DNA from: an archaeon
GTDB taxonomy: Archaea; Aenigmatarchaeota; Aenigmatarchaeia; QMZP01; JAFGSV01
Assembly (NCBI GenBank): GCA_028279705.1
Contig: JANQNF010000024.1
Location: 48,257 to 112,256, forward strand
DNA length: 64,000 nucleotides
Reading direction: 5' to 3'
Each line of letters opens with the position of its first letter. Position 1 is the first letter of the stretch. The notes beneath the pieces were generated by a model that saw only the letters and a list, made by a program, of their open reading frames with translations, did no database searches and had not been told where the DNA came from. A program made the translations under genes and the position numbers. Of this stretch, positions 4,855-51,595 are shown in pieces.

Positions 4855-4929
4855 GGGACCGTGGTGTAGCTTGGCCTAGCATCGGGGCTTCGGGAGTCCC
4901 AGACCTGAGTTCAAATCTCAGCGGTCCCA
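4855..4929 (+). tRNA. tRNA-Pro (CGG)
   Basis: 75-nt cloverleaf GGGACCG..TTCAAAT..CGGTCCCA with anticodon loop TTCGGGA. Confidence 0.8.
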
Positions 4930-4963
4930 TCGAATGACCCCCAAAACAATTATACGGTAAAAT

Positions 4964-5038
4964 GGGGCCGTAGTGTAGTTTGGCCTATCACTCGAGGCTG
5001 GGGGCCTCGTAACCGGAGTTCAAATCTCCGCGGCCCCA
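4964..5038 (+). tRNA. tRNA-Pro (GGG)
   Basis: 75-nt cloverleaf GGGGCCG..TTCAAAT..CGGCCCCA with anticodon loop CTGGGGG. Confidence 0.8.
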
Positions 5039-5050
5039 TCCTTTTTTTAT
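5039..5050 (+). terminator. oligo-T archaeal terminator after the tRNA-Pro pair
   Basis: A T7 run lies immediately 3' of the tRNA. Confidence 0.4.
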
Positions 5051-26922: not shown

Positions 26923-28926
26923 TTATTTTTTACTTTTCTTGATTCCATCTTTTTTCGATTTCTCGCCCTTTTCGGTTCCTGCAGCACTGTCGGTTTTTTT
27001 GGCCCCTTCTATGACACTCTTATGTTTTTCCGGCTTACGTTTTTTACTTTCCATGACTATGAGGTATGAAGCCGATACGACCAGAAGCGAAATGACTGCC
27101 ATTGCCACTATCGTGATATTGTCAAATACTTTCTTGTCAACCCCGGGCTTCTCTTCCCCAGTACAAGCATTCTTTTTGGCATCGCAACCATCTTCGCATC
27201 TTTTCAGAAGTGACCATCCGGACCCGTCACCTTCACATTCATACAGTTTGCCGTTCATGCACGACCTGTCTGATGGCGTGCATATTTTTTCAGGGACTTC
27301 AACGTCATCTTCCAGTACTTGCGCGTAAAATTCAGTTTTTACTTCGTCTATTATTGCGGCCACTTTCTGGCCGATGACCTCATAATTTATGGAAAACTCG
27401 TCTTCCGGACCGATTTCCGGATACGTTATCAGCCAGCTTGGGTCATCCTCCACCACGACAACCGTTGCTCCAGGTGCTGACACATTCACAAGACTTGCGT
27501 CAGCCGCAAATGACTTAGGGACCTTTTCGAAGACCATGAAATTCCTCACCTTCTTTTTACCCGAATATTTTATTGTAGTTTTCAGTTCCGTTCTGGTGCC
27601 GCTGAACTCAAGCGTGCGCCTGACTTTGGTGTCCCTGGTCACTGTCTCTGATATGTTTTTCAGCACTGTCTTTTCATCATCGTCCAGGTGATCATCAGAT
27701 AATACCTCGCCGATAGCTTTTGTCAGGTTCATGTTAATGTCTATCTCTGCCCCCGCTTCTATCGTGGGGTTTATGGACGTGTTGTCAGGAACTGTTATGA
27801 CCGTCGTGCCGCCTGTTCCGCCGCCCGATGTGGTACAGGACTGCGTTTCCTCAGAAACCCATGGATACTGGCACATGCTGCCGTCGTTGCATGACCTTGT
27901 TTTTTGCCCCCCTGTGCATGAAGACCAGTCCCCGCATGCCCAACTCGAATTGCATTCAAGTGTGGTGAAATTCAATACCCCTGAAATGTTGCAATTGCCA
28001 GACGCGTCGCATGAAGTTACATTGTAATAATGAGTCGTGTTCTTTGTGAGATACTTCAATGTCAGATTATGAGCCATAGTAAGAGACGCGCTGTTTACAC
28101 TTCCTGAGACTGAATGTGAAAATGGAAAGTGACTAACTGTAGAATCTGACGGCTCATCAGTTTCCCATATAATGTTTGCGGATATGGCACTTACCGCATC
28201 TTCAGTGATGTTTAATAGGGACGGCGGTGTTTCGTCAGGTGTTGTCATATTCACGTTAATATTTCTTACCACAGAATTCCCGTTACTCACAGCATCGCTG
28301 CATTCTATGTACCACGTGCTTGAACCATTTGGAACAGACGTGTTTTGTATTGTAGTGTTCGTTGCATTTGTCACGGATACATTTTCACCTGAAAATGATC
28401 CGTTTATGTAAAGTGCGCATGACATAGTCGCTTTCATGTTGTCAAGTGCAGTGAACTTGAAACCCATTGACTGGTTCGAAGAGTTGTGATTGTCGGGCGG
28501 GTATAGTAGGTTGACAGACGGAGGTTCATTGTCAATGAATAGCGCCCACGTACCAGAAATCATCGAATTCGCGTTTGTGCAGTTCACAAACCAGTTGAAT
28601 ATACCGTCGCTTAACGAGTGGTTTGCATAAACCGTTCCAGTGCTGCCGTTGGCAACCGGACCGGCAGTACCGCTACTCGTGTTGTCAATGAAAAGTACAC
28701 AGGTTGCCGGTGAGTCACCTCCCGTGTAGTTGAACCGGAACTGTATAGTATCATTCGTTCCGTTGGTCCATAAACCATTTCCCGGTGATATGAGATTGAC
28801 AATGTCCACGCCGGCACCGGTAACAGAAATGGCATAAAATATCGTGGACAGAGAGAAGAGTGCAAGCATCCCGCATAATACATGTTCCACTGTTCTCATT
28901 TTTTCACTCAACCATGTTGTGTCCAA
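26923..28926 (-). CDS. large cell-surface glycoprotein with C-terminal TM anchor and Lys-rich tail
   Basis: Signal peptide, more than 40 N-x-S/T sequons, Cys-rich modules, C-terminal TM (IVAMAVISLLVVSASYLIV), KK-rich tail. Confidence 0.6.
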   Translation of the reverse strand: MDTTWLSEKMRTVEHVLCGMLALFSLSTIFYAISVTGAGVDIVNLISPGNGLWTNGTNDTIQFRFNYTGGDSPATCVLFIDNTSSGTAGPVANGSTGTVYANHSLSDGIFNWFVNCTNANSMISGTWALFIDNEPPSVNLLYPPDNHNSSNQSMGFKFTALDNMKATMSCALYINGSFSGENVSVTNATNTTIQNTSVPNGSSTWYIECSDAVSNGNSVVRNINVNMTTPDETPPSLLNITEDAVSAISANIIWETDEPSDSTVSHFPFSHSVSGSVNSASLTMAHNLTLKYLTKNTTHYYNVTSCDASGNCNISGVLNFTTLECNSSWACGDWSSCTGGQKTRSCNDGSMCQYPWVSEETQSCTTSGGGTGGTTVITVPDNTSINPTIEAGAEIDINMNLTKAIGEVLSDDHLDDDEKTVLKNISETVTRDTKVRRTLEFSGTRTELKTTIKYSGKKKVRNFMVFEKVPKSFAADASLVNVSAPGATVVVVEDDPSWLITYPEIGPEDEFSINYEVIGQKVAAIIDEVKTEFYAQVLEDDVEVPEKICTPSDRSCMNGKLYECEGDGSGWSLLKRCEDGCDAKKNACTGEEKPGVDKKVFDNITIVAMAVISLLVVSASYLIVMESKKRKPEKHKSVIEGAKKTDSAAGTEKGEKSKKDGIKKSKK

Positions 28927-34085: not shown

Positions 34086-35936
34086 ATGGCAACTGAGCTG
34101 AAAAAAGAACTGGGACTGATACACGTCGTGATGCTTTGTACAGGTGCCATAATGGGCACGGGCATCTTCATCATACCAGGCGTTGCGGGCGGCCTCATGG
34201 GTCCTGGGTCAATGATACTCTGGGTCATAATAGGATGCCTTACAATACCGATAAGCCTGTGCTTCATAGAACTTGCGTCGAGCTATAACATCACAGGGGG
34301 CCCGTACGTATATGTCAGGGAAGCCATGGGCGACTTCTGGGGCTTCATAACCGGGTGGACCGCCTGGCTTATGGCGTGCATATACATAGGGACGCACACG
34401 ATAGCCATAAAGTATTACTTGGATTATTTTTACGAACTTACTTTCGTTGAGTCTGCCGTGCTTTATGCCGGCGTCATAGGCATCATAACACTTGTCAATT
34501 ATGCAGGCGTAAAGCAGGGGGGCAGGACACAGCTTTTCCTTACGCTTGGAACGTTTTCCGTGCTTGCGATATTCATAATATTCGGACTTCCCAAGGTCGA
34601 CATGACAAACTTCGACCCGCTGTTTCCGCTTGGACTTTCAGCTCTTGGGATGACCGCCGTATTGATAGTCGAGCCGTTCATAGGCTGGGAGACGACGACT
34701 GTCATCGCAGGTGAGGTCAAGGACACCAAGAGGAACATACCGCTCGGACTGGTGATATCGACCGTTCTCATAATGTCTTTCTACCTGCTCACGGTGTTCG
34801 TGACGCTTGGTGTCATGAACTGGGAGATGCTGGCCGAATCGGTCTCACCCATGGCGGACGTGATGAAGCTTGCCTACGGAAGCTTCATGGGCATGATGAT
34901 GACCGGCGGTGCAATAGTGGTAAGCCTTGCCTGCCTGAATGCGTGGATACTCACGACTGCGAGGCTTCCATACGCCATGGCAAAGGACAAGCTTTTCCTT
35001 GACTCCTTTGGAAACATAAGCAGGAAGTACAATACACCGTCGAGATCGCTTCTGGTCCAGGCTATCATAGCCTTCGTCATAACACTTACGGGTTCATACG
35101 AAGGTGCGGTATTCCTTCTCATGGCAAACGCGCTGATGCTTTATGCGCTCTGCGCATTGTCTGTCATAAAGCTTAAGAAGAGGCCGGTAGACAGGCTCAT
35201 AGACCTTCCCGTCGTCATACCACTCATGGCTTTTGTCATGTGCATAATACTGCTCATACAGATACCGTTCGAGCTCATGCTTTCTGGACTGATGCTCATA
35301 GCGTTTGGTATACCGATCTACATAATGATACGGGTAACTTATGACAAGGAGTTCCTTGAGAAATTCTACAATGCGGTGTCACCGCTTTATGATGTGATCT
35401 CACCGCTTTGGTATGGAAAGGGCAGAAGGGACAAGGTGATAACCAACGCCGATGTGAAACCTGGCAACATAGTTCTTGACTACGGCTGCGCGACAGGTAC
35501 AGACGTTGTGGGACTTTCAAAGCTTGTTGGAAGTGAAGGCAAGATAGTTGCAGTGGACATATCCATAAAGCAGCTTGAAAGGAGTGTTGAACGCGCAAAG
35601 AAAATACCCGGAATGCCGAACGTGGCCTTTGTCAAGGAAGGAAAAGAGCTCATGCCGTTTGAGGCAAACACGTTCGATCGTATAGTTTCCGTCGGCGTGC
35701 TGTCATACCAAGACGATCCGACCGAGCTGCTCAAGGAATTCAGGAAAGTGCTTCGGAAAGGCGGGAAAGTGAGCATACTCGATTTCGGCAGGGCACTTTT
35801 CGTCCCCAAGGCAAAATACCTCAAATCCCACGAGACCATAAAGAAGACATTTAATAGCGCTGGATTCAAAGACATTAATGTGGAAAAAAACAGCAGCATC
35901 TCTGCTGAGTACTACTACATAACTGCAGTGAAGTGA
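34086..35936 (+). CDS. APC-family amino-acid permease fused to a C-terminal class-I SAM-dependent methyltransferase domain
   Basis: 12-TM APC-like N-terminal part, then motif I VLDYGCATG and the post-I/II blocks of a type-11 MTase, in one continuous 616-aa ORF. Confidence 0.6.
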   Translation: MATELKKELGLIHVVMLCTGAIMGTGIFIIPGVAGGLMGPGSMILWVIIGCLTIPISLCFIELASSYNITGGPYVYVREAMGDFWGFITGWTAWLMACIYIGTHTIAIKYYLDYFYELTFVESAVLYAGVIGIITLVNYAGVKQGGRTQLFLTLGTFSVLAIFIIFGLPKVDMTNFDPLFPLGLSALGMTAVLIVEPFIGWETTTVIAGEVKDTKRNIPLGLVISTVLIMSFYLLTVFVTLGVMNWEMLAESVSPMADVMKLAYGSFMGMMMTGGAIVVSLACLNAWILTTARLPYAMAKDKLFLDSFGNISRKYNTPSRSLLVQAIIAFVITLTGSYEGAVFLLMANALMLYALCALSVIKLKKRPVDRLIDLPVVIPLMAFVMCIILLIQIPFELMLSGLMLIAFGIPIYIMIRVTYDKEFLEKFYNAVSPLYDVISPLWYGKGRRDKVITNADVKPGNIVLDYGCATGTDVVGLSKLVGSEGKIVAVDISIKQLERSVERAKKIPGMPNVAFVKEGKELMPFEANTFDRIVSVGVLSYQDDPTELLKEFRKVLRKGGKVSILDFGRALFVPKAKYLKSHETIKKTFNSAGFKDINVEKNSSISAEYYYITAVK

Positions 35937-36459: not shown

Positions 36460-37923
36460 ATGGATAAGAGTGACATTTTTCAGGACCCTGATCTTGATCA
36501 GGTCTTCATGACTGACGAGAATGTGCTTTCAGACATCATAGAACTCTGTGACCTGAAGAAGAGCGAGACCGTCCTTGAGATAGGTTCTGGTCCCGGTAAC
36601 CTGACAGAAGCTCTCGCAGCGAAGTGCAAGAAGGTCGTGACAATAGAGATCGACGAGCGGAGAAAGGACGAACTGGAAAAGAAGTTCTCGGGAAAGAACG
36701 TCCAGATCGTCTGGGGAAACGCGCTGGAAATTCTTGAGAAGAAGAGCGTGCGCTTTGACAGGATCGTCGCAAACCCACCTTACGCAATAAGCGAGGCGCT
36801 CATAAAGGCACTTTTCAGGCACGATTTTATATCATCCATACTCACGCTTCCTTCGAAGTTCGTCGAGAGGCTTGCTGCGAATCCGGAGGAAGACCGTTAT
36901 TCAAGGCTTTCGCTTTTTTCCCAGGCTTTCTTCAAGATCGAGACTCTTCTTCGCGTGGAAAAGAGCGCGTGGACGCCGAGTCCTGATACATCAAGCTTCG
37001 TTGTCAAGCTGACGCCCAGAAAACCTGCGGATTCAAGAGAGCTCTTACTTAGAGAGATGTCGCTGCAGGACGACAAGAAGCTGAAAAACGCGCTGAGGGA
37101 TGCGATGTCCAAAAGTGACGGCAAGACGAAGCGCAGCGCCATGGAAGTTATCAGAAACGCCGGTGTGCCAAAAAAACTTCTGGACAAGAAGATAAGCGAG
37201 ATTGGGCTCCGGGACATAATGGAAGTTGCTGCCAAATTCGGAGGAAAGAAATACAAGCTTGTTGCCTTCGACCTTGACGGTACGCTGATCGACGAGAAAG
37301 AATGCATATGGAAGATCATACACGACCATGTCGGAACCGACCCGAAGATACGAGAAGATCTCATGGAAAAATTCTTCAGCGGGAAGATAACCTATGCAGA
37401 CTGGGCTTACCACGACATCGAGAGATGGAAGGAAATGGGGGTTACGATGGACACTCTTGCCAAAAAGGTAAAAGAGTTCAGACTGATGCCCGGCGCCATG
37501 GAGACTTTGAAAACGCTGAAGAAGAAAGGATACAAACTCGCATTGATATCCGGAAGCATAGGCATAGTGCTTGACACATTCATACCCGATGCTCACAGGA
37601 TATTCGACCACGTCGTCATAAACAGGCTGACGTTTGAGGACGACGGAAAGATAACCGGAATAGACGTTCCAGAAGACTACAAAGAAAAGGAGAGCAAGGC
37701 CAGGTCACTTGAAAGGATAGCGTCACTTGAGGGTGTTAGTCCTGAGGAGTGTGTCTTCGTCGGGGACTCAGACAACGACTTCGATGTCATGAAAGTCTCC
37801 GGACTTTCGATAGGATTCATGCCGACCAAAAAGATATCATCGGTCAGCGATGTCATCATAAAAAAGAAAGACGTACGCGAGATAATGAAATACCTGAATG
37901 ATGGTCAACACAATCCCTTGTAA
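36460..37923 (+). CDS. KsgA/Dim1-type rRNA adenine dimethyltransferase fused to a SerB-like HAD phosphatase domain
   Basis: N-terminal VLEIGSGPGNLT and IVANPPY (KsgA). C-terminal FDLDGTL...GDSDNDFDVMKVSGL (HAD motifs I and IV). A single 487-aa ORF. Confidence 0.6.
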   Translation: MDKSDIFQDPDLDQVFMTDENVLSDIIELCDLKKSETVLEIGSGPGNLTEALAAKCKKVVTIEIDERRKDELEKKFSGKNVQIVWGNALEILEKKSVRFDRIVANPPYAISEALIKALFRHDFISSILTLPSKFVERLAANPEEDRYSRLSLFSQAFFKIETLLRVEKSAWTPSPDTSSFVVKLTPRKPADSRELLLREMSLQDDKKLKNALRDAMSKSDGKTKRSAMEVIRNAGVPKKLLDKKISEIGLRDIMEVAAKFGGKKYKLVAFDLDGTLIDEKECIWKIIHDHVGTDPKIREDLMEKFFSGKITYADWAYHDIERWKEMGVTMDTLAKKVKEFRLMPGAMETLKTLKKKGYKLALISGSIGIVLDTFIPDAHRIFDHVVINRLTFEDDGKITGIDVPEDYKEKESKARSLERIASLEGVSPEECVFVGDSDNDFDVMKVSGLSIGFMPTKKISSVSDVIIKKKDVREIMKYLNDGQHNPL

Positions 37924-40319: not shown

Positions 40320-40634
40320 ATGAAGGAACTTGACCACATAAGAAAGGTCGAAAATGAGATTTCTGTCAAGGTGGAAAGGGCACGCAATGAGTCTGAAAAA
40401 AAGCTTGCGAAAATGAGACGTGACCGAAGCATGCTAATCGAGGAAAAGGTAAACGTCGTAAGAACTGAACTGGAAAAGGAGAAAGAAAAGTGCAGGCATG
40501 ATTCTGAAAAGGAGGCTTCCCTCATGCTTGACGGTGCGGAAAGGGAAGTTTCTGAAATAGAGAAAGCTGCCAAGAAGAACTTCGATTCCGCAGTAAAAAC
40601 GGTCTTGGGGTTTTTGTCTTATGACAAATCTTGA
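40320..40634 (+). CDS. atpH: A-type ATP synthase subunit H (probable)
   Basis: Small charged coiled-coil protein at the head of the ATPase operon. Confidence 0.5.
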   Translation: MKELDHIRKVENEISVKVERARNESEKKLAKMRRDRSMLIEEKVNVVRTELEKEKEKCRHDSEKEASLMLDGAEREVSEIEKAAKKNFDSAVKTVLGFLSYDKS

Positions 40635-41607
40635 ATATTCAAATGCCAGGATAAAGGGCTTGAAGAGCTTTCTCATAAGCGAAAATGACATGAAGATAGC
40701 CCTTGAGATGAAATCCGTCCGTGATTTTTCCTCATGGCTTGAGAGCTCCTCTTACAAGTCATCGGTTGACGGGAAAAGTCTTCTGGACATAGAAAACGGA
40801 CTTTTCCTGGACCTTCTTAAAACTTCTGAAAAAATACTAAGGATAGTTCCCGAGAACACAGTATCGTTCTTTTCTGCAAGGCTTTCTTATTTTGAAATAG
40901 AAAGCCTGAAGCTTCTTTTCAATTTGAAGTCCAGCGGAATCAGTAACGAGAACCGTACGGCCTTTCTTACTGGAAAACTGAAAAAACTTGCAAATGCCCT
41001 TTCTTCTGCTGACAGTGCTGAAGAAATATCTGAAATCCTGAAAAAGACTAAGTACGGCGATGTGATTTCCGGCTGCCTTGAGCGGAAAGAAGACGTCTGT
41101 TCAGGCCTTGACCGGTACTATTTTGAGAGGCTCTGGGAAGAGGTTGGAAAGCTTCCGAGGGGATACAGGCCACTTGTCAGGGAGATTATCGGAACGGAGA
41201 TAGACTGTGCAAACATAATGCTTGCCCTCAGGGCAAAAGCCAGAGGTGAGGATAAGTGCCCGGTGATACCGATATTTCACAACCTCAAGAACAATTTTGG
41301 CACTTCCTGCGACAGCGCAGACGGCGTCAGGGGAGTCATCTCACTCATTTCGGAAAGTGCCTATGTTAGAATCCTTGATGATGCGATCCGTTCCTATTCC
41401 GACGGCAAGTCACTTTTCATGTTTGAACAATTGCTCAGAAGGCGCGTTGCAAATGCCTACAAGAAAGCAGCATCCGATACCCTTTCTATTGGTGTTCCTC
41501 TCGCCTATGTCAAGATGAAGGAAAACGAGATAACGAATCTCAGGTCAGTTTCCATGGGCCTTTCAAGCGGCATGTCAAAGCCTGAGATAGAGGAGATGAT
41601 ACTGTGA
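40621..41607 (+). CDS. atpC: A-type ATP synthase subunit C (V-type d)
   Basis: N-terminal YSNARIKGLKSFL motif and length of about 330 aa, inside the operon. Confidence 0.6.
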   Translation: MTNLEYSNARIKGLKSFLISENDMKIALEMKSVRDFSSWLESSSYKSSVDGKSLLDIENGLFLDLLKTSEKILRIVPENTVSFFSARLSYFEIESLKLLFNLKSSGISNENRTAFLTGKLKKLANALSSADSAEEISEILKKTKYGDVISGCLERKEDVCSGLDRYYFERLWEEVGKLPRGYRPLVREIIGTEIDCANIMLALRAKARGEDKCPVIPIFHNLKNNFGTSCDSADGVRGVISLISESAYVRILDDAIRSYSDGKSLFMFEQLLRRRVANAYKKAASDTLSIGVPLAYVKMKENEITNLRSVSMGLSSGMSKPEIEEMIL

Positions 41608-43607
41608 CGTGGTATCCAGACGATATGATGCGGGTAGACATACTCGTTCCTGACACGAGGAAGGAAAAGGTGGTCAGGGACCTTGAGGATAGCGGCCTCA
41701 TGGAACTCATAGAAGCAGACGCTCCTGGTGTAGAAAAGAGCGGTATATCGGACAGCTATCCGCGCGTATCAGAATTCATAAACATGATCGAAGACACGCT
41801 TGAAGCGTTTCCCGCTCCGGTGAAAAAGGACAACATAGGTTCTAAGGAGAAGGTTTCCGTACGAGACGACGGTACTGAAAGACTCCTCTTGGATGCGGAG
41901 AAGATGAGACCTATTTTGGAAAATGTCAGGTCGATCAGGGACGAACTGAAGTCGTGTTCTGACAGGAAAGAAAAACTTTCCGCTATCGGCAAGATAGTAT
42001 CGCTTCTTGGATCGCTTGATGTTGACCCGTCGAGTGTTTCCGGCCACGACCTTGTGTCAGTCTTTCTTGGAAACATTCCTGCAAAGGACGTCTTGAAGGT
42101 AAAGGAAGAACTCTCAAATAAATCCAGGAAAAGTTTTGTGAAGGCCGGGAAAGCATCCGGCGGAAGTTCCCTTCTAGTCGCGGTAGTTTCAAACGAACAT
42201 GCTGATGATTCAACAAGGATTCTCAACACAAGCGGCTTTGAGCCGCTGAAGCTTCCAGAGGAAATATCAGGGATGAGCCTGGCTGAAGCGAAATCCTTTG
42301 TTGAAGGTGAAACGGAAAAAGCTACAAAACTTGAAGACAAGCTGAAAAATGAACTACTGAAACTTTCCGAGAAAAGGCACGACCTTCTAGTTCTTCTTGA
42401 ACTGTTGAAGATTGAAAAAAATCTCGACGAGTCTGGTATGAAATTCGGGAAGACGAATCTCACAGGGCTTATCAGCGGCTGGGTTCCTGAAGCGAAGCTG
42501 AAGTCACTCGAGAGTACGGTAAAGCGCTCTTCAAATAATGCGTGCGAGGTTTCAAGCAGGAAGCCGGGGAAGGGCGAGATACCACCAAGCCTCATGCACA
42601 ATCCCGGACCTGCAAGCGGGTTTGAGATGATAACAAAGAATTACGGGCTTCCGGCCTACGACGAGCTTGACCCGACAAAGATAATAACGTTCACTTTCCC
42701 TTTCATTTTCGGCATGATGTTTGGAGATGTCGGGCATGGCATAATGCTCTTTATCGCAGGACTTTTCATGGTAAAGAAGTTCGATGCCGGCATAAGGGAC
42801 TTTGGAAAGACCATTGTCATATGCGGGATTGCGGCGACGTTTTTTGGGTTCCTTTATGGTAGCATGTTCGGCCTCACGATTGAGAATACTTCGTGGATGT
42901 TCCATCCGCTCTGGATGGAGCCACTTGCCCATGGCGGTGCGAACATAACATATTTCATAAAGTTTTCGATAATGCTTGCACTCGTCGTTCTCAGCCTTGG
43001 CTGCATACTGAACATAGTAAACAAGGCAAGACATTCGCTAATCCATGCATTCTTCCATCCGTGGGGAGTTCTTGGGTTGTGGGTGCTCCTTGCGGGCGCA
43101 AACCTGTTTTTCAGGCACGGAATGGATTTCATACCACTCATAATAACAGGGGTACTGGGAAACGCCGAAGCGATGAGTACAATATTTACCGATTTCATGC
43201 TCCTTCTGATCCCCGTCGCCCTCGTTCCCGTCGGGGAGATATTTGTTGACAAAAAGCCCGTTCCTGTCGGACTTTACGCAGCAATGGAGGTCCTGCAATG
43301 TTTCCTCGTAAACACGATATCATACGTGAGGGTCGTTATAATCGCTGTCGTCCATGGCGCGCTTCTTCTCATGGTAATGAAAGTGATGGAAGTTGTGACA
43401 TCTGGCATGAGCGGGCCTGTCGGTTCCGTTGTGTCAGTACTGATATTCATAATCGGAAATGTCGGCGTCTTCGGCATGGAAGCAATGATATCTATGGTGC
43501 AGACCGTAAGACTCCATTATTACGAGCTTTTCTCCAAGTTCTACAGCGCTTCTGGCAGGCGGTTCTCTCCTTTCAAAACAGAACGAAATTACACGGTCAG
43601 AAAGTGA
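41604..43607 (+). CDS. atpI: A-type ATP synthase subunit I (membrane a-subunit)
   Basis: Soluble coiled-coil N-terminal half, polytopic C-terminal half, 667 aa. Confidence 0.75.
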   Translation: MTWYPDDMMRVDILVPDTRKEKVVRDLEDSGLMELIEADAPGVEKSGISDSYPRVSEFINMIEDTLEAFPAPVKKDNIGSKEKVSVRDDGTERLLLDAEKMRPILENVRSIRDELKSCSDRKEKLSAIGKIVSLLGSLDVDPSSVSGHDLVSVFLGNIPAKDVLKVKEELSNKSRKSFVKAGKASGGSSLLVAVVSNEHADDSTRILNTSGFEPLKLPEEISGMSLAEAKSFVEGETEKATKLEDKLKNELLKLSEKRHDLLVLLELLKIEKNLDESGMKFGKTNLTGLISGWVPEAKLKSLESTVKRSSNNACEVSSRKPGKGEIPPSLMHNPGPASGFEMITKNYGLPAYDELDPTKIITFTFPFIFGMMFGDVGHGIMLFIAGLFMVKKFDAGIRDFGKTIVICGIAATFFGFLYGSMFGLTIENTSWMFHPLWMEPLAHGGANITYFIKFSIMLALVVLSLGCILNIVNKARHSLIHAFFHPWGVLGLWVLLAGANLFFRHGMDFIPLIITGVLGNAEAMSTIFTDFMLLLIPVALVPVGEIFVDKKPVPVGLYAAMEVLQCFLVNTISYVRVVIIAVVHGALLLMVMKVMEVVTSGMSGPVGSVVSVLIFIIGNVGVFGMEAMISMVQTVRLHYYELFSKFYSASGRRFSPFKTERNYTVRK

Positions 43608-43675
43608 GATATGGGACAAACATGTGGGACCTATTTAATATTTAAAGGTAAGGAACCATATGAACGTTATATAGT

Positions 43676-43999
43676 GTGATAATAATGAGAGGGAAATTGT
43701 TAACAATTGTGAGCGCATTCATTGTCGTGCTTGCCCTTTCTTCTGGTGCGAACGCACAGAAAGAAGCACACGCAGCTACTGCGTCTGACAGCGGGATTAT
43801 TGCAATCTCTGCTGCAATCGCAATAGGAATGTGCGCTCTTGGCGCCGGATACGGTATTGCAAAGGCAGGTTCTGCCGCAATGGGCGCCATAGCAGAGAAA
43901 CCTGAGTCTGCAACATGGGGACTCATAATCGTTGCTCTGGCAGAAGGTGTTGCGCTATACGGCCTTATAATAGCATTCCTTCTGGTGACCAAGCTGTAA
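43676..43999 (+). CDS. atpK: A-type ATP synthase proteolipid subunit K (c)
   Basis: Glycine-rich helical hairpin and a conserved acidic residue in helix 2 (ALAEGVALYGLI). Confidence 0.75.
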   Translation: MIIMRGKLLTIVSAFIVVLALSSGANAQKEAHAATASDSGIIAISAAIAIGMCALGAGYGIAKAGSAAMGAIAEKPESATWGLIIVALAEGVALYGLIIAFLLVTKL

Positions 44000-44047
44000 A
44001 ACCTATTTTTAGCTTTTCTTGTCTTCATCAGATGCCTTAAGATAGTT

Positions 44048-44587
44048 ATGGGGATTGGCGAAATAATACGGGAATTGAAGGAAACCGGAAACAAGCAGGC
44101 AGAACAAGTCAGATCTGAGGAAAAGGCAGAGACCGACAAGCTGAAAAAGGAAATCGAGCGCGACGCATCTTCTGAAATTGTAAAAGTCAAAGAAAAATAC
44201 CGAAGGGAAATCGACCTTGAGAAGAAAAGGATACATGCAAAAGCCACTCTGCAGATAAAGGAACAGGTTGAGCAGAAGAGAAGCGAGGTCATAGACAGGG
44301 TATTTCTCGAAGCAGAAAAGAGGGTCCTTTCCATGAACGAAACCGGAAAGAAAAAGATACTGGAGTCGCTTTCAAGGGACGGAAAGGCTGGAGTTTCAAA
44401 CCCGACGGTTTTTGTTGACATGAAGTATGCAAAGCTTCTCAAGGGCGCAAAGGCAAAGGGCATAGGTGACTTTGGCGTGATTGTCGAAAGCGGACATGTG
44501 ACTGTTGACAATACGCTTTCTGCAAAGCTTTCCGAATTCAAGTCGGGTTCAAGACATAAGGTTGCTGAGGTGCTATGGCAAAACTAG
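44048..44587 (+). CDS. atpE: A-type ATP synthase subunit E
   Basis: About 180-aa charged coiled coil plus C-terminal globular domain, placed between K and F. Confidence 0.65.
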   Translation: MGIGEIIRELKETGNKQAEQVRSEEKAETDKLKKEIERDASSEIVKVKEKYRREIDLEKKRIHAKATLQIKEQVEQKRSEVIDRVFLEAEKRVLSMNETGKKKILESLSRDGKAGVSNPTVFVDMKYAKLLKGAKAKGIGDFGVIVESGHVTVDNTLSAKLSEFKSGSRHKVAEVLWQN

Positions 44588-44859
44588 CTGTGATCGGGGA
44601 CGACATGACCGTACTCGGGATGAGACTTGCAGGCGTTGAAAGCAGCATTGCCACTGCTGAAAATATCCAGAGCGTGTATGACAAGGTAGCGGAAAGTGCG
44701 GACATGATAGCAGTGACTCATGGTCTTTTCGAATCGCTGAAAAAAAAGGACGAGAAAAAGATAACCGTAAGCATCCCTGACATGACGGGAGGTGGCGGTG
44801 ACATGATAAAGGAAATGGTAAAAAGGGTTGTTGGATTCGAGGTGAAGTCAAATGGGTAA
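44575..44859 (+). CDS. atpF: A-type ATP synthase subunit F
   Basis: MAKLAVIGD...GMRLAGV flavodoxin-like F-subunit signature. Confidence 0.7.
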
Positions 44860-47800
44860 GATAATACGTGTTACTGGTTCGGCAATTGAAGCCGAAGGCA
44901 TGCGCGGAAGCAGCATGTATGAGATGGTAAAGGTAGGAAATGAAGGCCTTCTTGGCGAGATAATAAGGCTTGAAGGTGACACGGCTTTCATACAGGTATA
45001 CGAAGAGACTACGGGTCTTACTCCGGGAGGTCCTGTAGAATGCACGGGAAAGCCGCTTTCAGTGGAACTCGGTCCAGGTGTTCTTAAGTCCATTTACGAT
45101 GGCATACAAAGACCGCTTGAGTCGATAAAGTCGGAGTGCGGCGAATACATACTGAGGGGAATATTCGTCCCATCCCTTGACAGGAAGGCGAAATGGAAGT
45201 TCACGCCTGTCGTCAAGAAGGGCGATTCCGTCAGGGCAGGAAGCGTCGTTGCCACGGTTCCCGAAACAGATGTCGTAACCCACAAGGTGATGGTACCATA
45301 CGGTGTCGAGGGAACGGTAGAAAGCGTTGAAAAAGGGGAGTTTACCGTCGATGACGTCGTCTACAAGATAAAGACAAAGGACGGTGTGAAGAAGTTTACG
45401 ATGGTCCAGACCTGGCCCATCAGAAAGCCAAGGCCTGTCACAGAAAAGCTTGCACCAGAAATCCCGCTTCTTACAGGGCAGCGGGTGTTTGATATGTTCT
45501 TCCCGCTTGCAAAAGGCGGCGCTGCCGCGATCCCTGGAGGCTTTGGGACAGGAAAATGTGTCAGTGGTGACACTCCTGTTGTCATGGGTGATGGAAGTAT
45601 AAAGAAGATGTGCGACGTGTTTGAAGAGAACAAGAGAAAGGGACTTTCGACGCGCGAAGGCGTTGAGGAGTATACACATCTGTCAAAACCCCTGAATGTC
45701 TTTTCGTGCAACAGCGGCCACGTGAAGAAGAAAAAGGCAACACTTGTCTACAAGGGAAAGACCAATTCTATGTGCAGAGTTAAGACGAGAATGGGACGGG
45801 TTGCCGAGGTGACACCGGTCCATAAACTATTCAAGATCAATCCGGATCTTTCCATAACAGGTACCGAAGCTGGAAAGCTTAAGAAGGGGGACTTCCTGAT
45901 ATCACCGAGGAGGATGAAGATCAAAGCAGAAATCCAGAAGATCAATGTCTTTGATCACTTTGATCATGAGAGGGTGTGTGATAAGGAAATAATTGACGAA
46001 ATCCCGGGTATTATCGACGGTTTTAGCTGTACAAGAAAGGAGCTTTCAGGAAGACTCGGGACCTCCTGCAGCACCATCAGTGGATACTACTCCAAGAGCA
46101 ACAGGCCGACTGTCGATTTCGTGAGGAAGCTTTACTCTCTTTCAAAGAAGAAAGTCAAAGTTTCAACAATAAAAAGCCAGAGATATGGAAAGAAGATTTC
46201 AGTACCTGACACGTTTTCTACGGAACTTGCAGAATTCATGGGACTTGTGATTGGCGATGGTTCCCTCAAGCCTGGGGGAATAGAGTTCTACAACAATGAC
46301 GAAAAGATGCTTGACAGGTTCGATGAGCTTGGTATGAAGCTTTTTGGCCTTACTTCCATAAGAAAGGTTGCAAACACAGTAAAGTGTTCGCACATGGGAA
46401 GTGTCGCCCTTGTCAGGTTCATGAACAGTCTTGGTATACCAAGGGTCAAGAAGTCCAGGACGTGCACTGTTCCAAAGATCCTAATGAAATCCAGTGACAG
46501 GCATGTTGCGGCCTTTTGTGGAGCCTACTTTTCATGCGATGGTCACGTCTCAAAGAGAGGATACGATCTTGAGATTGCAACCGCCAGCAGCGAATTCCAG
46601 ATAGGGTTCTCGTATCTTCTTCTGAGGCTAGGAATACTCCACAAGCTTTCCGAAAGGACGGGAGTAAATGGAAGGCCCCAGTACAGGATATTCGTTACAG
46701 GAAAGGACCAGATCGGCATTTTCTATGAAAAAAGTAATAATAATAGCGTCAAGTTCGAAAGAATCAGGGATTATCTTGAAAATGGCAGGTGTGCTTACAA
46801 TTCAACTGACGTGGTCCCTATAGGCAGCGATCTGGTTGAGGAGGTGTACGATTCTCTTGGCAGGCCCCATAACCGACTGAACTCCTACGGTGTCCACATA
46901 GACAACTATCTCGGCAACAAGGAAATGATGGGAAGGGGCGTGTTTTGCAAGTTTGCAAAAGCCAGCGGAAGAGAATCACTGATGAAGTTTGCAGACTGTA
47001 TGAGCGACATATACTGCGACAAGATCGTGGATGTGCAGACTATTGATAGTCCAAGGGACGTCTTTGATATAACTGTCCCGGATTTCCACAATTTCGTTGG
47101 AGGCTTCGGACCGATGTTTTTGCACAACACAGTATCACAGCAGAGCCTTGCGAAGTGGTCTGATGCAAACATCATAATCTATGTCGGATGCGGTGAGCGC
47201 GGAAACGAGATGACAGAGGTTCTTGACGAGTTCCCGCACCTGAAGGATCCTAAATCCGGACTTCCTCTCATGGAGAGGACGTGCATGATCGCGAATACGT
47301 CAAACATGCCTGTCGCTGCAAGGGAGGCGTCCATTTACACGGGAATAACGCTTGCAGAATACTACAGGGACATGGGATACGACGTTGCAATGATGGCGGA
47401 TTCGACATCCAGATGGGCAGAAGCCCTGAGGGAGATGTCAAGCAAGCTCGAAGAAATACCTGGTGAAGAAGGGTATCCTGCATACCTTGCGTCAAGGCTT
47501 GCAGACTTCTATGAGAGGGCAGGACGGGTAAAGGCGCTAAGCAGCGAGACCGGGAGCATCAGCATCATCGGTGCAGTGTCCCCTCCGGGCGGCGACTTCT
47601 CAGAGCCTGTCACGCAAAACACCCTGAAGATCACAAGGGTCTTCTGGGCGCTTGACACGACGCTTGCGGACAGGAGGCACTTCCCGTCCGTAAACTGGCT
47701 CACTTCGTATTCGCTTTACAGCGGAAAGCTTGACGCGTGGTTTTCCAAAAACGTTTCTCCTGAATGGGCAGCGCTTCGAAACAAGGCAATGGTAATACTC

Positions 47801-48151
47801 CAGAAGGAATCTGAGCTGAGGGAAATAGTCCAGCTTGTCGGCCCGGACGCACTTCCGCTTTCAGAAAGAGTGGTACTTGAGGTTGCAAGAATGGTCAGGG
47901 AGGACTTTTTGCAGCAGAACGCCTTCCACGAAGTGGATTCGTACTGCCCGCCAGAAAAGCAGTTCCGTATGCTTGAAATGATAATGGCATTCCACTCCTT
48001 TGCAGACGGCATGATAGCTTCCGGAAAGTCCATAGAAGATGTCCTGAATACGGACATCGCATCCGAGATGGGCAGGATGAAGTACATGAATGAGAATGAA
48101 TTCTCAAAGATGCACGAGTCGTCCATGAAGAAAATGAAGGCAGGTGTTTGA
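44852..48151 (+). CDS. atpA: A-type ATP synthase catalytic subunit A, interrupted by a 524-aa intein in the P-loop
   Basis: The extein GGFGTGK|TVSQQ reconstitutes the Walker A motif. The C-terminal half matches A-subunit blocks ([16 protein letters not shown]). Confidence 0.85.
45557..47128 (+). mobile_element. Full-size intein with LAGLIDADG homing-endonuclease domain, in the atpA P-loop
   Basis: Starts at Cys1 (CVSGDTPVV). Two LAGLIDADG motifs ([27 protein letters not shown]). Ends ...FLHN followed by Thr+1. In frame with the exteins. Confidence 0.8.
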
Positions 48152-49530
48152 TTATGGCAGTAAAAGAGTACAAGTCCGTTGAGAGGGTCTTTGGACCGCT
48201 CATAATCGTTGACAAGGTATCAGGTGTCAGCTACAACGAGATGGTCGAGATAAAGACTGCGACCGGCGAAAAGAGGTTCGGCCAGGTGCTTGACGCGATG
48301 AAAGACAAGGCGGTCGTCCAGCTTTTCGAAGGGACTTCAAACCTTGACACAAGGGACACGAGCGTAAAGTTTCGTGGCGAGAGCATGAGGCTTGACGTTG
48401 GCGTTGGAATGCTTGGACGCGTATTCAGCGGTGCTGGAAGGCCGATAGACAACCTCGGCGACCTTGTCCCAGAAGACCGCCTGGACGTAAACGGATTTCC
48501 AATAAATCCCGCTTCGAGGGAGTTTCCAAAAGAATTCATCCAGACAGGCGTTTCTGCAATAGATGGCATGAACACGCTTGTCAGGGGACAAAAGCTTCCC
48601 ATATTTTCTGCTGCAGGCCTTCCGCACAACCAGCTTGCTGCACAGATTGCAAGGCAGGCGACCGTCCTCAAGGGCAAGAGCAATTTCGCAGTGGTCTTTG
48701 CTGCTATCGGCATAACTGCAGAGGAGGCAAGGTTTTTCAGGGAGAGCTTTGAAGAAAGCGGTTCCATGGAAAGGATCGTAACGTTCTTAAACCTTGCAGA
48801 CGACCCGACGATCGAGAGGATAATAACCCCAAGAGCAGCCCTTACGACAGCGGAGTTTCTCGCGTTCAAGCACGGCATGCACGTCCTTGTAATAATGACT
48901 GACATGACAAACTACTGCGAGGCCCTAAGAGAGGTGTCTGCTGCAAGAGAAGAGATTCCCGGAAGGAGGGGATATCCCGGTTACATGTACACCGATCTTT
49001 CAATGAATTACGAGAGGGCTGGGAGGATAAAGGGAAAGAAGGGGAGCATCACGCAGCTTCCGATCCTTACGATGCCCTCAGACGACATAACCCATCCCGT
49101 TCCAGACCTTACAGGATACATCACCGAAGGGCAGATCGTGCTTTCAAGGGAACTGCACAGGAAAGGTGTATTCCCTCCAATAGACGTTCTTCCGTCCCTT
49201 TCAAGGCTCATGCAGCAGGGAATAGGTGCCGACAGGACAAGAGGCGATCATTCAGGAGTTTCAAACCAACTCTACTCAAGCTATGCCGAAGGAAGGGACC
49301 TAAGAGACCTTGTCGCAGTCGTTGGCGAGGAGGCCCTCGGGGAGCGTGAGAAGAGCTTCATAGAGTTCTCTGACAGGTTCGAGGGAGAGTTCACAAACCA
49401 GGGGCCGAAGGAAAACAGGACAATAGACGACACGCTTTCAGTTGCCTGGGACATAATGGCTTCCCTTTCGAAAAAAGACCTCAAGAGGATAGACCCCGAG
49501 TTCGTCGAGAAGTTTCTCAAGAAGGACTAG
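48148..49530 (+). CDS. atpB: A-type ATP synthase subunit B
   Basis: Non-catalytic B-subunit blocks ([26 protein letters not shown]). Confidence 0.85.
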
Positions 49531-49533
49531 ATT

Positions 49534-50154
49534 ATGCCAAAATTAATAGAAGGCGTTCATCCGACAAGGATGAACATGCTGAAGCTGAAGAAGAGGATAA
49601 CGCTTGCAACGAGGGGTCACCAGCTCCTAAGCGAGAAACTCGACACGCTTATGTCTGAATTCTTTGAAGTCCTTGAAAAAGCAAGGGGGATTCGGGAAGA
49701 ACTTGCCGTCTCTCTTGAAGCCGGCAGGAAGAACCTTGCAATGGCTGCCGCACTCTCGCCTTTTGGGGAGGTTGAAGCGGCAGCGTCCTCTGCGGGCCCA
49801 ATAAGCGGCGTAGAACTTGAGATGAGGAACCTGATGGGTGTTCGGATACCAAAGCTGAAAGTCCCCGAAAACGAGCGGAAAATGGACTACAGCTTCGGGC
49901 TTTCCTCGTCAAAGCTCGATGATGCGGCAGTAAACTTCTCCGATGCACTGAAAAAACTCCTTGTTTTGATAGAAAGCGAGGAGTCTCTTCGAAGGATCGG
50001 TGAAGAGGTTGCAAAGATAAAAAGAAGGACAAATGCCCTTGAGTACATACTCATCCCAAACCTCAAGCATACCAATGCCTACATACGCTTCATGCTCGAG
50101 GAACTCGAGCGTGAAAACTTTTTTAGGCTCAAAATCATAAAAAGAAAAAGATAG
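49534..50154 (+). CDS. atpD: A-type ATP synthase subunit D
   Basis: About 200-aa coiled-coil central-stalk protein directly after atpB. Confidence 0.7.
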   Translation: MPKLIEGVHPTRMNMLKLKKRITLATRGHQLLSEKLDTLMSEFFEVLEKARGIREELAVSLEAGRKNLAMAAALSPFGEVEAAASSAGPISGVELEMRNLMGVRIPKLKVPENERKMDYSFGLSSSKLDDAAVNFSDALKKLLVLIESEESLRRIGEEVAKIKRRTNALEYILIPNLKHTNAYIRFMLEELERENFFRLKIIKRKR

Positions 50155-51382: not shown

Positions 51383-51432
51383 GAAACTCCCAGAAATTTT
51401 ATTAATGTTACCCTGTCATTATATTCATCGAT

Positions 51433-51529
51433 GGGCCTGTAGCTCAGTCTGGTTAGAGCACCCGGCTCTTAGGGGTCACTTGACCACGGAGAAACCGGGG
51501 CGTCGCGGGTTCGAATCCCTCCAGGCCCA
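51433..51529 (+). tRNA. tRNA-Lys (CUU) with 22-nt intron at the canonical 37/38 position
   Basis: GGGCCTG-TA-GCTC-AGTCTGGTTA-GAGC-A-CCCGG-CTCTTA[22 nt]A-CCGGG-GCGTC-GCGGG-TTCGAAT-CCCTC-CAGGCCC-A. Confidence 0.7.
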
Positions 51530-51595
51530 TTTCATTTTCTAAAGTTTTCCCACAGAAGACCGAAGGGTTTTTATTACTTTCTTTCAAGAATCAAT

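Follow-up and report, generated by a model that had tools for sequence, protein, structure and literature searches.

The gene for the catalytic subunit of the A-type ATP synthase (atpA) in an archaeon of the Aenigmatarchaeota contains an in-frame insertion that we identify with high confidence as a genuine, intact class-1 intein with a LAGLIDADG nuclease, placed at the site called VMA-b. The gene lies in a 64,000-nucleotide stretch of DNA, hereafter referred to as the window, which covers positions 48,257 to 112,256 of contig JANQNF010000024.1 (GenBank assembly GCA_028279705.1); coordinates below are positions of the window, and atpA and all its parts are on the forward strand. Judged by its sequence, the insertion adds a new and highly divergent member to a known intein family. 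It is very likely to be competent for splicing, and the chances that its nuclease is active at present appear about evenly balanced. Its predicted architecture, from the N-terminus, is the N-terminal half of the splicing domain (HINT-N), a helix-turn-helix (HTH) region of the XRE type, the LAGLIDADG nuclease, an accessory region resembling that of the Thermococcus litoralis VMA-b intein (TliVMA), and the C-terminal half of the splicing domain (HINT-C).

The atpA precursor and its insert

The open reading frame (ORF) of the atpA precursor, delimited by the ORF list and by Pfam, extends from 44852 to 48151 and encodes 1099 amino acids without an internal stop. Reading of the DNA divides it into an N-extein of 235 residues ending in ...IPGGFGTGK (44852 to 45556), an intein of 524 residues from Cys1 to His523-Asn524 (45557 to 47128; also delimited by Pfam and alignments) and a C-extein of 340 residues plus the stop codon, of which the first residue is the +1 nucleophile Thr (47129 to 48151). 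Codon 236 of atpA is TGT (Cys), with its first base at 45557; positions 47123-47128 read CAC AAC (His-Asn), and ACA (Thr) begins at 47129. The insert amounts to 1572 nucleotides, or 524 codons, in frame, and splits the Walker A motif as GGFGTGK/TVSQQ (the slash marks the insertion point here and below). The original prediction, made from the letters of the DNA, had described a 524-residue in-frame insert at 45557-47128 that starts with Cys and ends with His-Asn before Thr, and its coordinates, frame and junctions all agree with the DNA. When the insert is excised, a 575-residue AtpA with an uninterrupted GGFGTGKT results, which is 75-80% identical to intein-free AtpA proteins (P0161-P0165) over 99-100% of the length. 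The same 1099-residue protein is also present in Logan assembly SRR20820740 (96.6-kb contig) and at NCBI (348-kb contig); since it was recovered from independent assemblies, a local assembly error is excluded.

Pfam assigns the parts outside the insert to ATP-synt_ab_N, ATP-synt_ab_Xtn, ATP-synt_ab (E 1.1e-68) and ATP-synt_VA_C, and the insert itself to Intein_splicing (PF14890; E 1.8e-19, 70.5 bits with a cut-off of 35.8) and LAGLIDADG_3 (PF14528; E 3.9e-18, 65.9 bits with a cut-off of 22.5). By these scores, the matches of the insert lie far beyond the level expected by chance. Mini-inteins are about 130-200 residues long and have no endonuclease between the HINT halves. The insert is not one of them, having 524 residues with LAGLIDADG_3 between its HINT halves.

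Intein blocks A, B, C, D, E, H, F and G are all intact, without a frameshift or stop. The HINT-N half (residues 1-118; 45557 to 45910) can be aligned with residues 5-119 of 7qss, the structure of TliVMA, and contains block A (Cys1) and block B (Thr86-Pro-Val-His89). The homing-endonuclease domain (residues 213-385; 46193 to 46711), located by Pfam and by alignment to the TliVMA nuclease, contains the catalytic set of Asp234 in block C (46220-46264), Lys298-Lys299 in block D and Asp328 in block E (46505-46549), blocks C and E having been placed by alignment. The two LAGLIDADG motifs that had been predicted are indeed present, at intein residues 222-235 and 317-331. The HINT-C half (residues 486-524; 47012 to 47128, from alignments) contains Asp504 and His511 of block F and the FLHN of block G, comprising His523 and Asn524, after which Thr+1 follows. 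As grounds for giving up the identification, the original prediction had named a frameshift or stop and the absence of conserved residues of blocks B and F; the reading frame contains neither a stop nor a frameshift, and Thr86, His89, Asp504 and His511 are all in place. Every sequence-level feature expected of an intein, of a VMA-b allele and of a two-motif LAGLIDADG endonuclease is present.

A second accessory region (residues 386-485; 46712 to 47011) lies between the nuclease and HINT-C. The phmmer alignment to 7qss continues through it, and it is collinear with the TliVMA stretch between the nuclease and the C-terminal HINT half, the accessory domain (ACD) of PMC8966425. Within the family, conservation is lowest in this region, which was also poorly modelled.

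A sequence search of the PDB returned TliVMA (7qss; E 1.8e-73) as the best match, followed by its deletion variant 7qsu, the Pyrococcus horikoshii intein PhoVMA (7qst; 3.3e-45), the Thermoplasma volcanium mini-intein TvoVMA (4o1s; 7.1e-21), PI-PkoII and PI-PfuI. Foldseek, given an AlphaFold model of the intein, ranked the structures in the same way and also returned PI-SceI and, for the nuclease domain, I-DmoI and I-Tsp061I. The whole-intein model was built from a four-sequence alignment and has a mean confidence score (pLDDT) of 65.5, with poorly predicted HINT halves; in view of that score, we used it for statements at the level of domains only. The nuclease is modelled with more confidence in residues 211-290 (pLDDT about 86-93) than in residues 291-385 (about 66-75); the order of helices and strands is as expected and the Foldseek TM score to I-DmoI is about 0.6, in what is a shallow model of four sequences.

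By the established chemistry of inteins, the two HINT halves would fold together in the translated precursor. Cys1 would form a thioester with Lys235 of the N-extein by an N-S shift, Thr+1 would attack this thioester to give a branched ester (transesterification), and Asn524, aided by His523, His511 and Asp504, would cyclise and release the intein, upon which an O-N shift would seal the P-loop and restore GGFGTGKT. Before the P-loop is sealed, the precursor ATPase would be unable to bind nucleotide. By homology to TliVMA (PMC8966425), the freed 524-residue intein, which is basic (pI 9.3) where the extein is acidic (pI 5.5), could then act as a monomeric LAGLIDADG nuclease whose active centre contains Asp234 and Asp328; this nuclease would be flanked by the HTH on the N-side and the Tli-like region on the C-side, both of which may modulate DNA recognition. 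Its expected target is GGxTTyGGxACxGGxAAr/ACxGTx of an intein-free atpA allele; repair of the cut allele from an intein-bearing copy would convert it (homing, gene conversion).

A helix-turn-helix region ahead of the nuclease

The Tli and Pho VMA inteins that have been crystallised lack the region of about 90 residues between HINT-N and the nuclease: when the window intein is aligned to TliVMA by phmmer, query residues ~114-198 are passed over, and TliVMA has about 12 residues in their place. A family profile and a structural model identify this region as a probable Cro/C1 (XRE)-type HTH (residues 122-212; 45920 to 46192), with core helices at residues 143-196 (45983-46144). A profile built from 16 homologous inserts matched 9sf2 (7.7e-7) and MBF1 (2mez; 3.2e-6) in the PDB and, more weakly, C protein, SinR (1e-3), HigA and HipB, and Pfam HTH_3 was matched by eight of the 16 inserts (best E 5.3e-5).

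The structural models point in the same direction. In the model of the whole intein, this stretch is helical and the most confident section (pLDDT 84-89). An AF2 model of the domain alone (pLDDT 83.6) has a five-helix fold with a helix 2 - turn - helix 3 arrangement, and its Foldseek neighbours are essentially all of the XRE type: SinR (1.9 Å over 58 aligned columns), P22 c2 (1.8 Å), the 434 repressor (2.9 Å) and HipB, with E-values of only 0.02-0.1 because the domain is small. At the level of the family and of the fold, these results argue that the insert is a Cro/C1 (XRE)-type HTH, although the window's own copy falls short of the Pfam threshold. An HTH in this position probably lengthens or modulates the DNA footprint of the nuclease.

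Related modules are found outside atpA. The inteins of Woesearchaeota eRF1 (P0005, P0006 and P0009), which the window intein matches with E-values down to 4.3e-18, combine Pfam HTH_3 with LAGLIDADG_3, showing that the HTH-nuclease module occurs in another host gene as well.

A literature search of incomplete coverage found no description of an XRE-type HTH in VMA-b inteins, and this domain may be the sole element of the window intein that is new to the literature. Beyer and Iwai (PMC8966425) report that accessory domains alter cleavage specificity, describe the artificial grafting of a 434-repressor domain, and propose that inteins are saved from extinction when they capture accessory domains that bind DNA. 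The natural occurrence of a Cro/C1 HTH in VMA-b inteins would fit this capture hypothesis. The HTH stands upstream of the nuclease in all 76 full-length relatives described below and not in the crystallised VMA-b inteins, which makes it a testable case of natural accessory-domain capture; should it extend or re-target DNA recognition, it would provide natural evidence for the Beyer-Iwai proposal and a counterpart of the engineered 434-repressor graft. The further idea that the window intein represents a widespread, undescribed class of VMA-b inteins, in which an XRE HTH was captured between HINT-N and the nuclease beside the C-side ACD, is one that we put forward tentatively and consider rather unlikely.

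Family, empty sites and mobility

The insert is located at the archaeal VMA-b (vma-1b) site, between the Lys and the Thr of the Walker A motif GxxGxGK/T. The sequence YVG/CGERG, which we take to be the yeast VMA-a (VMA1/PI-SceI) site, is continuous in the window's C-extein, 20 residues downstream of the insertion. The placement of the insert at 'the classic VMA insertion site' in the original prediction has to be corrected accordingly: it occupies archaeal VMA-b, and the yeast VMA-a site downstream is empty. The VMA-b/vma-1b site was defined by Beyer and Iwai (2022; PMC8966425), according to whom the VMA-a and VMA-b sites are about 20 residues apart. The VMA-b/vma-1b intein is a well-known mobile intein (Swithers et al. 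2013, as quoted in later papers; PMC8966425).

An exhaustive phmmer search of 1.84 G representatives returned 2561 proteins at E <= 1e-3, the top matches being AtpA proteins of about 1100 residues with an insert of 500-540 residues at the same position. Relatives of the window intein were found in 199 GTDB species genomes (one genome per species was scanned). We retrieved the best 80 of these loci and recovered both flanks in 76, in every one of which the insert lies between ...G.FG.GK and T[VI]... of atpA. The hosts are labelled as Thermoplasmatota, Woese-, Aenigmat-, Iain- and Micrarchaeota, Methanosarcinales/Methanoperedens, Hadarchaeota, Asgard archaea, Thaumarchaeota, halobacteria and Crenarchaeota. 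The family was also seen in atpA of metagenome-assembled genomes labelled as bacterial (L003, L007, L008, L023, L045, L050 and others), among them Anaerolineae, Actinomycetota, Fraserbacteria, Planctomycetia, Omnitrophota and Mahella; these could be either true bacterial A/V-type ATPases or mis-binned archaeal contigs.

Residues Cys1, Thr86, His89, Asp504, His511, His523 and Asn524 are invariant in all 76 full-length members, as is Thr+1 in 75 of 75. The acidic residue of block C is Asp in 72 and Glu in 4, that of block E is Asp in 75, and Lys299 is conserved in 74; no member has a stop codon, and each carries an HTH insert of 90-97 residues. Mean pairwise identity is 0.42 for the nuclease, 0.43 for the N-terminal splicing half, 0.30 for the HTH and 0.29 for the C-side accessory region. 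The pairwise identities of inteins and exteins across the family show a moderate correlation only (Spearman 0.44). Full-size copies are the common state at the VMA-b site, of which the mini-inteins (Thermoplasma, 4o1s) are one other state. The original prediction was therefore right to describe a complete endonuclease instead of a mini-intein and wrong to regard this as unusual for the site; since full-size copies are the common state, the contrast with mini-inteins is valid only against Thermoplasma.

We searched with the 575-residue extein alone for the nearest host relatives. The nearest homologues are intein-free AtpA proteins of 573-575 residues, and the named ones (n=2) are from Candidatus Aenigmatarchaeota. 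By AtpA similarity and synteny, the two grounds used for the assignment, the window's host is most likely a DPANN archaeon of the Aenigmatarchaeota lineage. In the three intein-free relatives L082, L083 and L084, the insertion site is uninterrupted and reads GGnGGnTTCGGGACnGGnAAr/ACnGTTTCnCAGCA, and where this differs from the sequence flanking the intein in the window, it is mostly in the third position of a codon. The exteins of intein-bearing loci are only 49-67% identical to the window's (C-extein alignments of at least 200 residues). The nearest inteins, 44-46% identical, are in Thermoplasmatota-type and other hosts and in none of the closest host relatives; those of other Aenigmatarchaeota are 35-38% identical. 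This distribution is patchy, in the pattern expected for a mobile element. Present mobility of the intein is plausible, a reading made reasonable by the intact catalytic residues together with the intein-free atpA of the closest relatives. The window and the empty-site relatives make a natural donor/recipient pair for homing, and the vma-1b family is extended to a probable host in the Aenigmatarchaeota (DPANN), among whose nearest relatives the site is empty. As the nuclease is apparently intact and shares no more than 46% identity with any other, it could also offer a new cleavage specificity for meganuclease engineering.

Several observations weigh against the picture of an intact, mobile, HTH-bearing intein or restrict how far it can be taken. 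With 13.6 bits (E 0.07), the HTH of the window intein itself does not reach the Pfam HTH_3 threshold of 23 bits, and its match to the CI-repressor HTH (E ~0.1) is likewise sub-threshold; what supports the assignment is homology to family members with better scores and a model from five sequences. The mediocre model of the whole intein (pLDDT 65.5) does not establish how the domains pack. The 76-member set was picked by a block-F pattern and by similarity to the query, and its invariance is accordingly biased to intact, similar copies. We looked for close relatives by word-indexed single-sequence and profile searches, exhaustive phmmer, and scans of GTDB, JGI metagenomes and IMG/VR; no intein more than 46% identical was found in 5.8 G protein clusters, the 1.84 G representatives, GTDB genomes, JGI metagenomes or IMG/VR, so that these searches gave neither a date for the transfer nor a donor. 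When JGI metagenomes were searched for the exact 24-nucleotide spliced junction, there was no match that would reveal an intein-free allele in the same lineage. The GC content of the intein (45.7%) and that of its third codon positions (GC3; 53.8%) lie inside the range of the host genes (47.1 +/- 3.2% and 55.8 +/- 7.0%), and a recent acquisition by composition was rejected on these grounds. There is, by these measures, no sign of recent movement into the window's genome.

A viral vector was not found in IMG/VR, which contained distant LAGLIDADG/intein relatives only, none of them at atpA; the best were at most 35% identical over partial lengths, with one 63-residue segment at 41%. The C-extein positions +5/+6 (47141-47146) are Gln-Ser, whereas His-Gln is found there in 113 of 120 AtpA homologues that lack an intein. 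Three Aenigmatarchaeota alleles with an intein (L020, L037 and L067) likewise have Gln-Gln-Ser. Gln-Ser may be an old co-conversion tract or an adaptation of the extein to the intein, as a hint and not as evidence. We did not take a co-conversion tract as evidence, given that the motif also occurs in a few intein-free proteins and that the inteins concerned are 35-38% identical (tblastn).

The alternative that comes closest is that the intein is a resident relic, for which we see somewhat less than an even chance: splicing would be kept by the cell's need for ATP synthase, the endonuclease would be inactive or out of targets, and the nuclease and accessory domains would persist only because the splicing fold now relies on them (HINT-HEN mutualism, in which HEN is the homing endonuclease; Beyer and Iwai). 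Long isolation of the lineage, whose nearest intein is 44-46% identical in all collections searched, and the entirely host-like composition are consistent with this; moreover, the homing-cycle model predicts decay once an intein is fixed, and PhoVMA is a full-size VMA-b intein with a dead nuclease (PMC8966425). Unlike PhoVMA, however, the window intein has kept Asp234, Asp328, Lys299 and complete blocks C, D, E and H, and across the family the nuclease domain is conserved as strongly as the N-terminal splicing half. Intein-free target alleles are present, too, in the closest known relatives, so at the level of the lineage the targets are not exhausted.

It is much less probable that the intein has been domesticated for the benefit of the host, with splicing in the P-loop serving as a post-translational control of the assembly or activity of ATP synthase, or with the freed HTH-bearing intein acting as a regulator. 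An insertion in the P-loop would hold the precursor inactive until splicing, and it has been argued (PMC4760082) that inteins may have a function in ATPase P-loops, given how they cluster there. The HTH is of a transcription-factor type, and the intein is rich in Cys (2.9%, 15 Cys, versus 0.9% in the extein). Most of these Cys are not conserved among relatives, however, and a conserved pair of them was not identified, so that nothing points to a redox switch; nor was there a sign of a regulatory target. The closest relatives live without the intein, its patchy cross-phylum distribution is that of a selfish element, and a switch would not require conserved nuclease catalytic residues. An artefact, either a chimeric assembly or an insertion outside an expressed gene, is effectively refuted: apart from the metagenome-type source of the assembly, nothing was found in its support, while the identical product comes from two sources and contigs, the frame is perfect, the junctions are precise, and in 75 other genomes the identical codon is the site of a homologous insert. 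A genuine, intact intein that may still be mobile accordingly remains our preferred reading.

Operon setting and comparison with known inteins

The atpA precursor gene is part of an ATP synthase operon (40621-50154) in the order C-I-K-E-F-A-B-D, all on the forward strand: atpC (40621-41607; vATP-synt_AC39, 1.2e-51) and, from the ORF list and annotation, atpI (41604-43607), atpK (43676-43999), atpE (44048-44587), atpF (44575-44859), atpB (48148-49530) and atpD (49534-50154). Stop and start codons overlap between atpF and atpA (44852-44859) and between atpA and atpB (48148-51). The order E-F-A-B-D is shared by the window and the intein-free loci L083 and L084, and L082 and L084 have C-I-K upstream and share C-I-K-E-F-A with it, whereas in L083 atpI is downstream of atpD, unlike in the window. 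In L084, S8e and LSM follow downstream as in the window, with an extra ParE-toxin-like gene before S8e that the window does not have.

The remainder of the 64-kb window contains no rRNA genes. A tRNA gene at 51432-51530 (97-99 nt; Rfam 52.9 bits), for which ARAGORN in bacterial mode gives no anticodon name ('ttag'), is probably an archaeal intron-containing tRNA, and a tandem tRNA-Pro pair (CGG and GGG) with a spacing of 34 nt lies at 4855-5041. Two ORFs are apparent fusions, one of an amino-acid permease with a C-terminal SAM methyltransferase domain (34086-35936) and one of a KsgA/RrnaAD rRNA dimethylase with a C-terminal HAD hydrolase domain (36460-37923). The 667-residue product of an ORF on the reverse strand (26923-28926) has no Pfam match at E <= 1e-3.

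The gene and the site have been known as intein hosts since the 1990s. V-ATPase subunit A is among the top archaeal intein hosts, and for the genome the element is ordinary, one further selfish element in a known host gene and site. Its closest counterpart of known structure is TliVMA (7qss), the best match in the PDB by sequence as well as by structure. The two share the host protein, the GK/T insertion point, the Cys1 ... His-Asn/Thr junctions, the HINT-HEN-ACD order and both catalytic Asp residues. They differ in length (429 residues in TliVMA against 524), in the about 12 residues that TliVMA has in place of the window's HTH of about 90, and in host, which is a hyperthermophilic euryarchaeon for TliVMA and a DPANN archaeon for the window intein; identity in the Foldseek structural alignment is about 31%. 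The T. litoralis intein is full-size and cleaves a reconstituted homing site in vitro, whereas that of P. horikoshii is full-size but degenerate; orthologues from P. abyssi and P. furiosus are also listed (PMC8966425).

PhoVMA (7qst) and TvoVMA (4o1s) have the VMA-b site and a homologous HINT domain in common with the window intein. PhoVMA has lost catalytic residues and part of block E (PMC8966425), whereas the window intein retains a complete nuclease; TvoVMA has no nuclease at all, whereas the window intein has one together with two accessory regions. S. cerevisiae PI-SceI resides in the homologous host subunit, likewise combines HINT, LAGLIDADG and a DNA-recognition region, and is a structural match, but it occupies the VMA-a site, which is unoccupied in the window, and is only 13-16% identical in the structural alignment.

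The metagenomic VMA-b inteins of 490-540 residues (P0001, P0002, P0012 and L002-L081) agree with the window intein in site, in the predicted five-part architecture and in the conserved residues. They are 29-46% identical to it, do not come from the window's closest host relatives, and are unannotated or carry generic names. The Woesearchaeota eRF1 inteins, finally, share with the window intein the module of an HTH followed by LAGLIDADG inside HINT, but differ in host gene and insertion site, with 23-29% identity.

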